This document shows positions 11,154 to 61,907 of a DNA stretch of 64,000 nt, piece by piece. Location: the NCBI GenBank assembly GCA_017627955.1, contig JAGAFU010000028.1:13808-77807 (forward strand), in the 5' to 3' direction. The notes beneath the pieces were generated by a model. The model had not been told where the DNA came from, did no database searches, and worked only from the letters and a program-made list of their open reading frames with translations. How positions within the stretch are numbered: position 1 is the stretch's first letter; every line of letters starts with the position of its first letter. The translations under genes and the position numbers were made by a program. This DNA is from Bacteroidales bacterium (GTDB taxonomy: Bacteria > Bacteroidota > Bacteroidia > Bacteroidales > UBA932).

Positions 11154-11176
11154 GTCTCAGGATGTCGATAAAGAAT

Positions 11177-11206
11177 AAGTCCCGGGCCAATTGGTCCGGG
11201 ACTTTT
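11177..11206 (+). terminator. Intrinsic terminator after icd, between convergent genes
   Basis: AAGTCCCGG-GCCAATTGGT-CCGGGACTT followed by TT. Confidence 0.8.
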
Positions 11207-11253: not shown

Positions 11254-14200
11254 ACCGTCCTTCAGTAACCTCCTTCCAGGTCTTCCTGATGACGACCGGA
11301 GGCAAATGAACCTCCTTGAAATCAGGTCTTTCCACCGAACTTCTGGTCGTCACCCTTGTCTGGACCGGGTGAGCCTTGTCCCAGGTCTTGAAGGCATTGT
11401 AGTCGTAGTTCCAGCTCTCGCCCTCGGAAAGCTTCATGATCCTTTTCCAGATCAATGCCCTTGAAGGAGCGTTGAAGTTAGGGTTATGATAGCCGTCGTT
11501 CATGACGCTTTGCTCCGTGGGCCTCCAAACCCCTGACCAGAAGGTGAATCCACCCTCGTACACTCCGATTTTCTCTGAAGAGAAGGCACTGTCTCCGATG
11601 AACTCTTTCCAGAGAACCTGTGAAGGGTTAGAGGTGAAATCCACGTTGAGGTACCAATTCCTTTGGGTCTGATCCTTCCTGGCATAGGAGACATCTTCCG
11701 CACTGATCATACCCTGGTCGCGGTAGGCATATTCATCACCAAGTTTGCCGATTCCATGCCCACCTACCTCATGGACAATCGTTTCCGCAAGACTGGAGAT
11801 GCCTCCGGACACATTGACATCCTTGTATGGAATCCAACTGACGGAGGGACCACCGGCATAGACCGATTGGTCTTCCGGGTAAATCATTGAGCACATTCCT
11901 CCGCTCCGGACAGTGTTCAACAGCACCAGAACAGCCACATTGTCCATTCTCGCGTTATCCTTGACGGCCTTTTTGGCGTACTCGAGCGCTTTCTCTATGT
12001 CTCCTCCTACGGCGGAGCCTTTGCCGAATACGCATTCGAATACTGTCGAATTACCGTTAAAGAATTCCTCGTGCTTGGAAACAGCGTTGACAAGATAGAT
12101 GTTGAACCTGTCCTTCATGGATTTGAGCGGTTCGGCAGAGAACAAGTCCTCGACAGCCTGCTCAGCGGTCTTCTTGAACGTCCCGTTGGAGATGAGCCTG
12201 TCGGAGAAACCATCCCCGGTGATGACTAAGTCAACTCCTTTGCCCTTGGTCGCTTTCTGCAGTTGGGTGTATTTCCCGTCTTGAGTGTAACTTGTCGACT
12301 CATAGTGGGTGACAGTTGTCTTGAGCTCCTTTTGGAGGAAGGCCACGGCATTGTTCAGATAGTCTCTGGATTTGTCAAAGAGAGTAGTGTAAACCACAGT
12401 TTGATCTGGTCCTATGATAACGATGCAGTTCTCAATGGGGTGAGGATACATAGCAGACCCCTTTTCCGCATAAAACGGGGCTCCAGCAGGATACTCATCG
12501 TACAGGTGTCTGATGAATGAGTCCCAGGTCGCACCTGTTTTATTAAGGACACTCTTGAATAACTCGTCCCGTTCATCCCTACTGGAGATCTCGGTGCTGT
12601 TATTATCGAAATATGAGATGATTCCCAAACCTTTACTCTTGCCTGTCTTATACAGTGTGGCCAGTTGTGCAAGGCAATCAACGGCATCACCAGACTTTGG
12701 ATTCATGTTGAACAGCACCGTGTACTGGTTCTTACTGAATTCTGTCTCGATGTCAAGCTCTTTGCCAGAGAGCGTGGTGATCTTGGGACTCCTGGGAATA
12801 GGAATCTTTGACTCGCGGAGATTGTCCATTGTGAAATTGTTGCCCCAGAATATGTTAGGCCATAATCTCCAATAATTGTCCATATTTGCCACAGTTGTGG
12901 GAATGGAGCCGGAGAGGTTGTTTATGGAAAGGTCAAGTTCCTTCAAGTTGATGAGGCTACCAAGCGATGCCGGTATCGACCCGGATAGTTTATTGCTCTG
13001 TAGATTCAACTCTTCCAATCCTGTGATCTGACCGATCCCGTCAGGAATTTTTCCAGTCAGATTGCAACCGCGGAGGGACAGTTGCTTCAAGTTTTTGAGA
13101 TTAAATATGTCAGAAGGAATCGTCCAGGAACTAAGAGGAATGTGAACCAAGACTAATGCTTCCAGGCTTTGGATCTTGTAGATGGATTTTGGCACGGTCC
13201 CGGAAACGGTATAAGTCCAGAGAGTCAAATTCTTGAGTTTCTTTAGGTTTCCTATTTCTGAAGGGAGTGGATATCCCTCATTGGGGATACCGCTAGGATT
13301 GATCATCTTGAATACTTCCAATTCAGTGAGATCCGCTATCTCTTTGGGAATCTGACCTTTGAGATTATCGTCATATATCCACACGCTTCGCACGTGTTTG
13401 CCATCAGGAGTCATTTCGATGCCCCTCCACAACTCCAAGGGTTGGTCCGAGCACCAATTCTGCTTAGTGAAGTCATCCCAGTTGTTTCCGTTGTTCGCAT
13501 TGAACAACTTTATCAAAGCGGCCTTTTCCTTAGCCTTGTAAGCCGCTTCCGTGACGGTGACCTTGCATGTGGCGGTCTTGTCTCCGGCTGTCGCGGTTAT
13601 CGTGGTCTCCCCGATAGCGATTCCGTTGATAACTCCGTTTTCATCGACGGTGGCGATATCCGTGTCGGAGGAGGTCCACTCAACTTTGACATCGGGGTCA
13701 TCGGTGTCAACTTTGGCGGTAAGGGTGGTCTCGCCTTCTTCCTCGATTTTCACGGAGCTCTTGTTCAAGCTGATGGACTTGATTGGAAAAGATACAGTTA
13801 TCAAGCAAGTGGCTTTAATCGAGCCGGCAGTGGCGGTGATGATCGCTTTCCCCTTGCCGACAGCTGTGACCTTGCCGTTTTCCACCGTGGCGACACTCTC
13901 ATCGCTGGATGTCCAGGTAATGGTCTTGTCATCAGCATCGTCAGGTGCGATTGTGGCTGTTAGCGTCAGGACATCCTTGGCGTCCAATGAGGCCGTGGTC
14001 TTGTCAAGTGTGATGGATGACACTCCCTTGGGGGTCACGGTGACTTCACATGTGGCAGTCCTGCCGCTCGCCGTTGCGGTGATGGTGGCGGTTCCGACCG
14101 CGACCGCATTCACGGTCCCCCTGTTCACAGTCGCGACGGAAGAGTTGGAACTGGACCAGGTCACAGTCTTGTCAGTGGCATTCGATGGGCTGACCGTCGC

Positions 14201-60671: not shown

Positions 60672-61907
60672 ATGGAACTTTTTGATGTATATAGTTTTTT
60701 CGATGTGACGCCGGTAAAGGCGAAAGGCACGAGGATTTGGGACGATAAGGGAACAGAGTATCTGGACCTTTATGGCGGTCACGCTGTCATTTCAGTCGGG
60801 CATTGCCATCCGAGATATGTGACCGCCGTGACTGACCAGCTCGGCAAGATCGGCTTTTATTCGAACAGTGTCCGCAATCCTCTCCAGGAGGAGCTGGCGG
60901 AAAAGCTGGGAGAGCTTTCCGGTTATCCCGATTATTCTTTGTTCCTCTGCAATTCCGGCGCTGAGGCCAACGAGAATGCCCTGAAGCTTGCCTCTTTCCA
61001 CACAGGCGAGCGCCGTGTCATCGCCTTCAAGGGCGCCTTCCACGGTCGTACCTCCGGAGCGGTCGCTGTGACAGACAACCCCAAGATAAGGGCTCCGTTC
61101 AACAGCTGGCATGAGGTCACCTTTGTCCCGATGAATGATATCGCGGCTGTCCGTGAGGAACTGTCCAAGGGGGACATCGCCGGAGTGATCATAGAAGGTA
61201 TCCAAGGAGTCGGCGGAATCATTATTCCCGATGACAATTTCATGCGGGAGCTTCGTCAGGCGACTCTGGAAGCGGGAGTACCGCTGATCCTGGACGAGGT
61301 CCAGAGCGGTTGTGGCCGTTCCGGCAAGTTTTTCGCCCACCAGTGGGCCGGGATACGTCCTGATCTCATCACGATGGCTAAAGGCATGGCCGGAGGTTTC
61401 CCGATCGGAGCCGTGCTGATCTCACCGGATTTCGAGCCTGTCAAAGGGATGCTCGGAACCACTTTCGGCGGCAATCATCTCGCCATGGCCGCGGCGATCG
61501 CGGTGGCGGACATCATCAAGGACGAGAATCTTGTCCAGAACGCCTACGAAGTCGGTGAATACCTCAAATCACGCCTGCTATCGTTGGCATCCGAAGCGCC
61601 ATCGACTCCCGGCGGCGGCAATGCGCCTGGGCGGACATTTACCCGGATAGGGCGCGAAGCGCAGGGAGCCCAGGCGCCCTTTGCCGACGACGGGAAAACG
61701 ATAGAGATAAAAGAGGTCCGGGGGCGGGGCCTGATGATCGGAGTGGAGTTTAGCGGACCGATCGCGGAGCTGAGACGGAAGCTGCTGTTTGACAAGCATA
61801 TATTCACAGGCGTGTCGGGCAAGAACATGATCCGTCTCCTCGCGCCCCTCACACTCACCAAAGACGACGTGGACATATTCATAAAAGCATTGGAGGAAGT
61901 CTTATGA
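60672..61907 (+). CDS. argD: N-acylornithine aminotransferase (class III PLP enzyme) with an in-frame insertion of about 35 aa
   Basis: NSGAEANE, FHGRT, ILDEVQSG, TMAKG and GTTFGGN motifs; extra segment before IKEVRGRGLMIG. Confidence 0.93.
   Translation: MELFDVYSFFDVTPVKAKGTRIWDDKGTEYLDLYGGHAVISVGHCHPRYVTAVTDQLGKIGFYSNSVRNPLQEELAEKLGELSGYPDYSLFLCNSGAEANENALKLASFHTGERRVIAFKGAFHGRTSGAVAVTDNPKIRAPFNSWHEVTFVPMNDIAAVREELSKGDIAGVIIEGIQGVGGIIIPDDNFMRELRQATLEAGVPLILDEVQSGCGRSGKFFAHQWAGIRPDLITMAKGMAGGFPIGAVLISPDFEPVKGMLGTTFGGNHLAMAAAIAVADIIKDENLVQNAYEVGEYLKSRLLSLASEAPSTPGGGNAPGRTFTRIGREAQGAQAPFADDGKTIEIKEVRGRGLMIGVEFSGPIAELRRKLLFDKHIFTGVSGKNMIRLLAPLTLTKDDVDIFIKALEEVL
61601..61702 (-). repeat. Family D long hairpin element inside argD (opposite orientation to the citX copy)
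   Basis: Core 61636-61668. Perfect 10-bp stem GCGCCTGGGC (61623-61632) / GCCCAGGCGC (61668-61677). Outer stem CCCGGCGGCGGCAA / TTGCCGACGACGGG. Confidence 0.9.

Follow-up and report, generated by a model that had tools for sequence, protein, structure and literature searches.

A palindromic repeat with a near-constant tip and covarying arms in argD, citX and other genes of Bacteroidales

The 64,000-nucleotide stretch analysed here (the window; positions 13,808 to 77,807, forward strand, of contig JAGAFU010000028.1 in GenBank assembly GCA_017627955.1) contains two genes of a Bacteroidales bacterium, argD and a putative citX, which carry nearly the same short sequence in opposite orientations, enclosed in each case by a stem of different sequence. 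What kind of element is this, and what keeps its arms paired when their sequence differs from copy to copy? A preliminary description had proposed that selection or the copying mechanism preserves the fold rather than the peptide, and that the element is recognised as a structure.

The hairpins in argD and citX

The two elements (Table 1) belong to a family, designated D, in a source genome of 2.58 Mb. Their cores, at 5151-5183 on the plus strand (CTCGCTGCGCTTCGCGCCCTATCCGGGTAAATG) and, read as the reverse complement, at 61636-61668 (CTCCCTGCGCTTCGCGCCCTATCCGGGTAAATG), lie 56.5 kb apart and agree at 32 of 33 positions, as first reported and as verified on the window sequence. Equally accurate were the perfect 10 bp inner stems (GCCACCCCTG / CAGGGGTGGC in citX, GCGCCTGGGC / GCCCAGGCGC in argD) and the CGGCAA...TTG(A)CCG outer stem common to both copies. 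The stems had been called unrelated; they do differ in sequence, but since both run on into this outer stem they are not wholly unrelated. The peptides are indeed in frame, SLRFAPYPGKC within a citX frame of 214 amino acids and RTFTRIGREAQ within an argD frame of 411. Comparison with shuffled controls also bears out the pairing: none of 200 dinucleotide-preserving shuffles equals the native fold of either copy, whichever strand is taken, and the fold energies lie between -50 and -54 kcal/mol, with z from -3.8 to -6.0 against such shuffles. The fold of the argD palindrome reaches its outermost ATCG/CGAT pairs, and the element scores 77.1 bits with covariance model R1. The citX element (-50.3 kcal/mol, z = -5.8) is the top R1 match of the genome at 93.3 bits, and its site is also filled in two other metagenome-assembled genomes (MAGs; L022 and L065).

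Table 1. Features of the two family D hairpins and their host genes (positions in the window)
Feature	Position	Strand	Remarks
Putative citX open frame (name from the preliminary description), host of the plus-orientation copy	4774..5418	+	
Family D element in citX, whole hairpin	about 5128..5210	+	translated ...AASATPVSLRFAPYPGKCSPGVALTA...
Constant core of the citX copy	5155..5183	+	29 nt
Short family A REP, 50 nt 3' of the citX core	5233..5259	+	TGTCATCCTGAACGAAGTGAAGGATCT; GTAG on the other strand
argD (acetylornithine aminotransferase, PF00202), host of the minus-orientation copy	60672..61907	+	
Family D element in argD, whole palindrome	61601..61702	-	102 nt, 34 codons; translated within ArgD as STPGGGNAPGRTFTRIGREAQGAQAPFADDGKTI
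3' arm of the argD copy (core orientation)	61601..61635	-	TCCGCCCAGGCGCATTGCCGCCGCCGGGAGTCGAT
Constant core of the argD copy	61636..61664	-	29 nt; minus-strand sequence CTGCGCTTCGCGCCCTATCCGGGTAAATG
5' arm of the argD copy (core orientation), with the CTCC junction next to the core	61665..61702	-	...CCCGTCGTCGGCAAAGGGCGCCTGGGCTCC

The source genome has 24 core matches, 22 of them full hairpins and the rest partial, and more than 115 further copies were collected from MAGs of other, uncultured Bacteroidales of the rumen and gut. A near-constant core of 29 nt (CTGCGCTTCGCGCCCTATCCGGGWAAATG) is common to all copies and is enclosed by arms of 20-30 bp, which vary in sequence between copies, yet pair. 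The unit of family D is taken to be the hairpin as a whole, about 90-105 bp long with an asymmetric 29-nt tip, and two mini-hairpins of the core (GCGC-TTC-GCGC and CCC-TATCC-GGG in argD) give it a T-shaped apex; one copy has the compensated change GTGC...GCAC in the first of these. At gathering score the sole Rfam match within the window was a tRNA, with none over the element. Nothing relevant appeared at E values up to 10, the best match over the element being CRISPR-DR28 (20.3 bits, the cut-off being 35), and the comparison with Rfam that the preliminary description had advised therefore places family D in no known RNA family.

Arm pairing, inversion and change in place

Stem covariation, on which the idea of a preserved fold depends, is strong in the larger copy set. 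In the structure-aware alignment A2 of 114 distinct copies the core is near-invariant, 90.2% of arm cells pair (59.9% in shuffles), all 23 of 23 arm pairs have changes on both sides, and covariation scores 0.632 where shuffles give 0.151 and slid partners no more than 0.103; the ungapped alignment A1 agrees. It is the fold that is preserved and not the peptide, as had been suggested, for the arms covary and the host genes read the element in five of its six frames and in both orientations.

Copies occupying the same site in related genomes differ by compensated double substitutions, by A:T to T:A swaps and even by a base pair added on both arms. Among 40 such pairs of copies (901 stem positions; phylogenetically non-independent pairs) there were 68 single and 23 double changes, and 19 of the latter kept a Watson-Crick pair where about 1 would be expected under independent change. 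The palindrome also reaches 7-9 of 10 positions into the copy-specific flanks, as compared with 5.3 for mismatched flanks of different copies. In the same 40 pairs the core was substituted at 17 of 1160 sites (1.5%) and the arms at 6.3% per site, which argues that recognition is at least partly by sequence. Of the claim that the element is recognised as a structure, the preservation of the fold has stood; the core is conserved as sequence, and recognition as a structure stays conjectural. At shared sites the cores are 93-100% identical even with flank identity down to 75-85%, and such near-identity in diverged surroundings calls for ongoing homogenisation or a host function; a repeat that was purely selfish and decaying would not account for it.

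Besides inverting in place, the family D hairpin undergoes deletion of its centre and tandem duplication. Same-site pairs had the same orientation in 85 cases and were flipped in 67 (44% opposite). At L139 the element is inverted relative to the source genome although the flanks are 97.6% identical, and of the roughly 14 copies that G015 has within a larger conserved repeat unit, 2 have the core flipped. The core and inner arms are absent from L140, where 51 nt lying between GGCGC direct repeats are missing, and tandem arrays of core plus arm exist. G:T wobbles are equally common on the two strands (141 sense, 154 antisense). Taken with in-place flipping, this symmetry indicates a DNA structure, double-stranded or hairpin, and copying from arm to arm rather than an RNA fold.

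Distribution, host genes and candidate enzymes

The argD insert is missing from the argD genes of 20 relatives, and the argD-type hairpin, arms and core together, recurs at no fewer than eight unrelated loci; on these comparisons of sequence, family D is mobile DNA. The source genome is empty or differently filled at sites where other MAGs carry a copy, and what clean empty sites lack is the complete hairpin, not the core alone. The preliminary description had looked to related genomes for empty-site alleles and target-site duplications. When the filled sites of other MAGs were aligned to the source genome no exact empty-site allele was found, and empty and filled sites are only 75-92% identical, so that the insertion junctions and ends, any target duplication and the exact transposing unit were not definable. 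Contigs from DNA runs, when placed across the sites, break at the core and yielded no clean empty allele. Short-read assembly is interrupted at the core of family D elements, where chimeric joins are possible.

Carriers of the core number 15 of the 201 species sampled from the genus, some having lineage-specific core variants, with from 1 to about 22 copies per carrier. In G015 the repeated unit that holds a D-like core is intergenic and at least 250 bp long, with a short ORF of about 15 codons after it; a search for a parent element found no transposase beside this unit.

Most copies lie within long open frames (21 of 24 in the source genome, 85 of 132 overall, in the two orientations relative to the host gene 52 and 33 times), and about a third lie outside them. 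The element is stop-free in four or five of its six frames. The host frame is thereby kept open, so that copies survive inside genes and would be carried as an extra peptide segment, putatively at the protein surface. In ArgD, residues 307-344 (38 amino acids, including the element) replace 2 residues which lie between conserved blocks of the solved homologue 1vef, and ArgD length in the clade ranges from 371 to 458 residues. Close strains read the argD insert in opposite orientations, as STPGGGNAPGRTFTRIGREAQ... and PSSAKGAWAPCASRPIRVNV..., respectively. The inserts lengthen and diversify the predicted housekeeping proteins. The core is present in metatranscriptome contigs, within longer records, and the RNA runs, with very thin coverage of the element, contained no joint that skips it.

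Seven open frames of the source genome match Y1_Tnp and are RAYT-like; two of the frames scanned matched most of the REP_Tyr_transpos profile, at E values of about 1e-8 to 1e-9 that fall short of the family cut-off. None of the seven has a family D copy within 500 nt, other palindromes lie beside at least three of them, and no specific link was found between family D and any one of these genes. Short GTAG-tagged REPs, such as that near the citX copy, lie 3' of the core on the core-sense strand in 15 cases in the whole copy set and on the opposite side in 0. Such one-sided placement is a polarity typical of single-strand chemistry, but its strictness fits uneasily with frequent flipping of the core. 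Core orientation showed no replication-strand bias when compared with local GC skew (71 of 144 positive, t = -0.3). Insertion of the IS200/IS605 type would presumably leave a strand bias, and its absence counts against that mode unless flipping has erased it.

Models for the element and its relatives

We consider that family D is probably a non-autonomous mobile palindromic repeat with mutually templated arms and a sequence-recognised core, for which RAYT-like Y1 enzymes are the best candidates. The complementarity of the arms would be upheld mainly because one arm is the template for the other, either through template switches on the quasi-palindrome as it is replicated or through recombination between the inverted arms, and the flipping of the core would be an outcome of the same process. 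The core would be conserved as the part whose sequence is recognised by the copying machinery, for which the seven RAYT-like Y1 (HUH) single-strand DNA transposases of the source genome are candidates. If arm-to-arm copying is correct, covariation alone is no proof of a functional RNA, and caution is called for in structure-based RNA discovery in metagenomes. The family offers a natural data set of more than 130 copies, many of them at the same site across species, in which the pairing, flipping, deletion and duplication of a palindrome are visible.

Only tentatively, since we think it rather unlikely, can the element be viewed as a minimal palindromic replicator, in which the 29-nt T-shaped tip is a "cap" without fixed arms. 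In each round of copying or repair, fold-back or template-switch synthesis would rebuild one arm on the other and carry the palindrome a few bases further into the local flank. The stems would be continually renewed and hence always paired, the tip would alternate between its two orientations, and selection for recognition would act on the tip only. Were this so, the mode of propagation and maintenance would be new relative to REPs, RPEs and MITEs.

Two other explanations also take the element to be DNA. According to one, which we regard as quite unlikely, it is a host-domesticated site: the core would bind a putative host protein (one concerned with the nucleoid, replication, recombination or defence, for example) and would be displayed at the apex of a cruciform able to extrude, rather as the IHF-binding motif of Escherichia coli BIME/RIP elements lies between its inverted units; selection in place would keep the core, and the arms would need only to pair. 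The near-identity of cores at shared sites with diverged flanks is as this predicts, as is a rate of core change about 4 times slower than that of the arms, and some intergenic copies do occupy terminator-like positions directly after stop codons. Against it stand the restriction to a minority of the sampled species, the wide range of copy number, the arbitrary positions inside unrelated genes and the lineage-specific core variants, these last being more in keeping with amplification from master copies than with a host site that is fixed; no partner protein came to light. It is very unlikely, in our estimate, that the mobile part is a core unit of roughly 29-50 nt which enters the apex of pre-existing hairpins, such as terminators or older palindromic repeats, so that the stems belong to the target. 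Clean empty sites lack the entire hairpin and identical arms and core occur together at unrelated loci, both contrary to this explanation. A search of the source genome for D arms without the D core, or with another core, gave one weak match, and core-less GGCAAG...CTTGCC hairpins are not in excess over controls. What speaks for entry of the core alone is that the arms at L040 and L072 resemble a native bidirectional terminator (A-tract, GC stem, T-tract) directly after a stop codon, with a plain terminator in the source genome at the L040 site; that one site may have the same core with different arms in different genomes; and that L140 retains outer arms without the core, the 5-nt repeat GGCGC of its 51-nt gap being readable as a target duplication.

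Selection on transcripts or on peptides accounts for less of the evidence. Strong covariation is what a structured RNA (a small RNA, mRNA stabiliser or terminator) would display, and T-runs after some intergenic copies and the occurrence of the core in metatranscriptome records also count in its favour. Selection on RNA is, however, not likely to be the cause of arm pairing: the strands have no G:U asymmetry, the element stands in both orientations to its host genes and flips between close strains, the majority of copies lie inside coding sequence, and the sub-threshold Rfam matches are weak and to unrelated families. The RNA reading was rejected on wobble symmetry, both orientations and flipping, and we regard it as highly improbable. 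It is scarcely credible that family D is a useful protein segment, selected as such and spread by recombination. Copies are in frame and LRFAPYPGKC recurs as the commonest translated reading, but five frames give unrelated peptides, close strains read the argD insert in opposite directions, and there are the many copies outside long open frames.

Among known repeats, family D is a further relative of the REP/REPIN, RPE and MITE kinds, with features that are new among these. Rickettsia palindromic elements (RPE), which Ogata et al. are said to have described in 2000, are also palindromes of about 100 bp found in frame in unrelated housekeeping genes; they are carried as extra peptide segments, as the family D inserts would be, and neither they nor family D have coding capacity of their own or a known transposase. 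Family D fits the RPE kind, a palindrome of about 100-150 bp in frame within protein-coding genes, and extends this "selfish DNA inside genes", classic in Rickettsia, to abundant free-living Bacteroidales of rumen and gut. The likeness is one of kind only: the hosts of family D are free-living gut and rumen Bacteroidota, and its sequence is presumably unrelated to the RPE-1 to RPE-10 families, which come from a different phylum. In family D, moreover, the apical 29 nt are the conserved part and the arms the variable one. We know of no report of RPE with the in-place flipping and systematic arm covariation of family D. RPE and MITEs are reviewed in PMC10969869. Family D resembles MITEs in being short, non-coding and multi-copy, with inverted terminal sequence and presence/absence polymorphism; each copy has inverted arms, yet these, unlike those of MITEs, differ from copy to copy, and no IS with matching ends turned up as a parent. 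The replication-tied strand specificity of IS200/IS605-type (PATE-like) elements was not seen, although flipping may have erased it. A full-text literature search, of incomplete coverage and hence no proof of novelty, found no description of such elements in Bacteroidetes.

REPs and REPINs, with their RAYT (TnpA-REP) Y1 transposases (PMC3116915, PMC3733652, PMC6006769), are likewise short hairpin-forming repeats, and their genomes too carry genes for Y1 HUH proteins. The source genome has GTAG-tagged family A REPs and seven RAYT-like genes with flanking palindromes, and family D shares with REPINs a long hairpin of two inverted arms around a spacer. In REPINs, however, the arms (REPs) are conserved and the loop is variable, the reverse of family D. 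The GTAG/CGTC foot tag of REPs is absent as a conserved feature, the core/arm junctions being CTCS...STCG with a CTAC(GC) variant in a minority of copies; the repeat flanks none of the Y1 genes as it would a cognate RAYT, and its location is predominantly genic rather than extragenic. In the BIME/RIP elements of E. coli, palindromic units in inverted orientation enclose a conserved central motif to which IHF binds. A conserved central motif between inverted arms is common to these elements (for context see PMC3333891) and to family D. The arms of BIMEs, on the other hand, are conserved REPs, their location is extragenic and their partner protein is known, which is not so for family D. Parvovirus ITRs, the T-shaped ends of linear viral genomes, occur in flip and flop forms and are processed by the Rep HUH nuclease. 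They are similar to family D in form, without homology being implied, as a long stem closing two small hairpins with an asymmetric tip in two orientations, and differ from it in that family D is a chromosomal interspersed repeat.

Structure and distribution of family D

The core identity of 32/33 claimed for the argD and citX copies of family D, a mobile hairpin repeat, was borne out between positions 5151-5183 (+) of the window and the reverse complement of 61636-61668. Each core lies within a perfect 10-bp stem of its own, GCCACCCCTG/CAGGGGTGGC in the citX frame and GCGCCTGGGC/GCCCAGGCGC in argD, and the two copies have a CGGCAA...TTG(A)CCG outer stem in common. The peptides quoted in the preliminary description are likewise in frame, long open frames of 214 (citX) and 411 amino acids (argD) being translated to them. 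The argD and citX folds gave z values of -3.8 to -6.0 against dinucleotide-preserving shuffles on either strand, with 0/200 shuffles as good. By comparison with the solved T. thermophilus enzyme 1vef, residues 307-344 of ArgD replace two residues.

Nearly all copies form a long hairpin in which two arms, paired at 23 positions on average, close a near-constant 29-nt core, CTGCGCTTCGCGCCCTATCCGGGWAAATG. The arms range from GC-rich to AT-rich, with perfect 27-30 bp stems at three loci in other metagenome-assembled genomes (MAGs; L016, L072 and L075); a GGCAAG...CTTGCC foot is present in about half of the copies, and the mid-stem is the most variable region. Two mini-hairpins, GCGC-TTC-GCGC and CCC-TATCC-GGG, can be recognized in the core. 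The opposite strand of the first is GCGCGAAGCGC, which contains GCGAAGC, a very stable mini-hairpin (PMC13037366). Since the mini-hairpin pairs hardly vary they lie outside the reach of covariation testing; one copy carries a compensated change (GTGC...GCAC) in the first. In several MAGs and in the own genome, i.e. the assembly containing the window, the core together with one arm is repeated two or three times in tandem, the period being 54-73 bp. At first sight such repeats resemble CRISPR arrays, the "spacers" being copies of the same arm. Copies of family C (core GGGCTTAGGCCG...GCGGCCGGGC) in the citC-citG frame are each closed by different complementary arms, and the design of constant core and variable paired arms is thus not peculiar to D.

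The own assembly (2.58 Mb in 60 contigs; 52.6% G+C) contains 24 occurrences of the core at ≤6 mismatches. In a search of the own genome a covariance model, R1, built from 22 of these recovered those 22 as full copies, one further partial copy and nothing more. A search for the exact pattern in one genome per prokaryotic species revealed at least 109 loci with the core; the matches listed come almost entirely from uncultured Bacteroidales MAGs of rumen or gut origin (RUG645, RUG790, RUI220, RUG13086 and others), and "Alistipes sp. CAG:435" is also included. Within the genus the core is present in 15 of 201 sampled species, approximately seven of which carry 9-22 copies, and some lineages have core variants of their own (GGGTAAAGG in genome G015; GGGTGAATG in G017 and G185). 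As a mobile palindromic repeat, family D is both real and widespread.

Insertion sites and reading frames

The insert is absent from the argD of 20 relatives with 63-82% amino-acid identity, and at the D sites of other MAGs the own genome is empty or filled by another repeat family. The argD-type hairpin, arms included, was found at no fewer than eight unrelated loci. No D arms occur in the own genome without a D core; the copied unit is therefore probably the whole hairpin.

Insertion hot spots are real. The ArgD loop is one (window ~61575-61720; proteins P0006-P0120), and the length of ArgD in the protein database varies from 371 to 458 residues across the clade. Among relatives the loop is empty or is occupied by a family A REP of 9 aa (EILRSAQND), by members of other repeat families (GAERSEASGGAERSEAS...), by two tandem elements, or by a D element in either orientation. 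A further site is occupied by a family C element in the own genome and, in two MAGs, by D elements whose arm sets are unrelated. Following the icd stop codon (window 11166-11206) the own genome has a plain terminator hairpin, GTCCCGGGCC-AATT-GGTCCGGGAC followed by TTTT; at this site L040 has an A-tract/GC-stem/T-tract hairpin whose loop is the D core, and L031 a further, different arm pair around the core. L026 (RGIG5088 contig) is probably a chimera of assembly with its junction at the repeated core: to the left its arm and flank correspond to own C44:21146, to the right to own C15:1356. Contigs from DNA runs also terminate at the core.

Open frames of >200 codons contain 21 of the 24 own copies, and of 132 copies with sufficient flanking sequence 85 are in frames that remain open through nearly all of the 729-nt piece examined. 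These 85 use five of the six frames, 52 in the sense and 33 in the antisense direction. Stop codons in the core are confined to one or two frames and, as read directly from the sequence, the stop-removing core variants GGGAAAATG and CCCTGTCC are those present in the affected frames.

Covariation and DNA-level behaviour

The finding would have been refuted by a lack of stem covariation in a larger copy set or by flanking complementarity no better than that of shuffled sequences, and it withstood this test. When the 22 own copies were aligned without gaps, changes on both sides were seen at all 23 arm pairs, with a covariation score of 0.543 versus 0.222 for shuffles and ≤0.286 for slid partners. 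A model-based alignment covering 114 distinct copies of other genomes, which was fitted to the structure and is hence biased in its favour, has 90.2% of cells pairing (shuffles, 59.9%; slid partners, 39-47%), all four Watson-Crick types at 23/23 arm pairs, and a score of 0.632 versus 0.151; the ungapped alignment and single-sequence folds agree with it. The view that the fold is kept rather than the peptide, possibly via the copying mechanism, stands, with the additions that the structure is that of the DNA and that the tip is conserved as sequence.

A reading of D as an RNA element was rejected. Metatranscriptome contigs do contain the core embedded in longer records, at thin coverage and with DNA carry-over possible, and at that coverage no contig skips it. 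The G:T wobble pairs are equally common on either folded strand (141 vs 154 of approximately 3,290 pairs), a search of Rfam gave no fitting family, and when copies occupying one gene site in different genomes were compared in pairs, 85 pairs agreed in orientation and 67 were inverted relative to their flanks. The clearest example of inversion is argD in contig L139, where the flanks on both sides are 97.6% identical to the own genome and the same hairpin is reversed, the insert peptide being PSSAKGAWAPCASRPIRVNV... rather than STPGGGNAPGRTFTRIGREAQ... as in the own genome. From a reading of the two sequences we infer that one argD form may derive from the other through inversion between CCGTCGTCGG and an imperfect inverted copy of it and then a short deletion. 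From L140 the core and inner arms are missing, a stretch of exactly 51 nt bounded by two GGCGC repeats. In L139 and L140 the argD element has immediately on its 5' side a perfect 14-nt palindrome, GGCAAGTACTTGCC, a typical D arm foot with an empty centre, which may be the remnant of an older element after loss of its centre. In G015 the arms are conserved across about 14 copies within a longer repeated unit, and the core is reversed in two. This unit (L142-L159, L160) is intergenic, at least 250 bp long, and has a D-like core, CTACGCGCTTCGCGCGCCCTATCCGGGTAAAGG, with conserved 30-bp arms; the short ORF after it starts MSKRN(M/T)FS and in one copy reads 15 codons to a stop.

How the pairing is maintained was examined in 40 chosen same-site pairs with arms ≥80% identical. 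Over 901 stem positions there were 68 one-sided and 23 two-sided changes, 19 of the latter keeping a Watson-Crick pair, while independent mutation at 6.3% per site predicts about 3.6 double changes, of which about one would still pair; although the pairs are not phylogenetically independent, the excess of compensated double changes is large. Examples are A:T to T:A swaps (L087/L099) and, in L062/L082, the gain of a base pair through an addition to each arm. The palindrome of the argD-type subfamily continues for 7-9 of 10 positions into locus-specific sequence, compared with 5.3 when flanks of different copies are paired. Were each arm liable to be copied from its partner, the double changes, the extended palindrome, the flipping and the wobble symmetry would follow. 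Known routes for arm copying are template switching on quasi-palindromes and recombination between inverted repeats. The cores of the 40 pairs changed at only 17/1160 sites (1.5%), and same-site copies with flanks only 70-85% identical have cores 93-100% identical. Possible reasons for this conservation are recognition by the copying machinery together with hot-spot turnover, homogenisation between copies, or a host function.

Related systems and candidate enzymes

In behaviour the closest systems are the Rickettsia palindromic elements, which are in-frame inserts, and REPINs, which are long hairpins in genomes with RAYT-like genes. The defining features of REPs and REPINs are missing from D, which carries no tag, is intragenic, flanks no RAYT gene and reverses their pattern of conservation.

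Seven open frames of 160-410 aa in the 2.6-Mb own genome possess the HUH and Y motifs of Y1 transposases, e.g. SNHVH...AYxxMNCV and YNHYH...AYLYNNPVE. Their matches to Pfam Y1_Tnp are weak; the two frames that were both scanned with NCBIfam REP_Tyr_transpos and matched by it cover most of the profile, scoring below the cut-off. Class 2 Y1 groups, some with a DnaA-like C-terminal domain, have been described for Bacteroidetes (PMC6006769), and proteins of this kind fall in these groups. Three of the genes are flanked by palindromes of their own, GTAG-tagged ones included, and three have short family A or B REPs at ≤500 nt. In the 500-nt surroundings D flanks 0/7.

Coordinates of repeats and candidate enzyme genes (C, own-genome contigs; L, loci of other MAGs)
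Feature	Location	Remarks
D palindrome in argD	window 61601-61702 (-)	exact limits; 102 nt, 34 codons
Short REP beside citX D copy	window 5233-5259	
Family C copy	window 5954-6045	citC-citG frame
Family C copy	window 6515-6600	citC-citG frame
Family C copy	window 7312-7405	citC-citG frame
Tandem core + arm array	C40:6567-6650	cores at 6567/6622
Tandem core + arm arrays	L009, L084, L059, L007, L093, L035	
RAYT-like Y1 (HUH) open frame	C14:82694-83656	~5 kb past window end
RAYT-like Y1 (HUH) open frame	C49:6531-7442	own palindromes CCGGTAGAGGTCC...GGCACCTCTAC
RAYT-like Y1 (HUH) open frame	C12:21099-22328	own palindromes GCCATGTGTGCCA...TGGCACACATGGC
RAYT-like Y1 (HUH) open frame	C45:156-1112	
RAYT-like Y1 (HUH) open frame	C8:46105-46788	
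RAYT-like Y1 (HUH) open frame	C29:128-613	
RAYT-like Y1 (HUH) open frame	C55:88113-89078	

Within 90 nt of a D core, 15 short REPs of families A, B and B2 were found on the 3' side of the core-sense strand and none on the other side, 13 of the 15 in one relative orientation. This one-sided placement suggests single-strand, strand-specific chemistry somewhere in the system. The orientation of D cores, however, shows no GC-skew bias. The copy at C38:78442 has a short REP beside it, and L025, the flipped copy at the same site, is without one.
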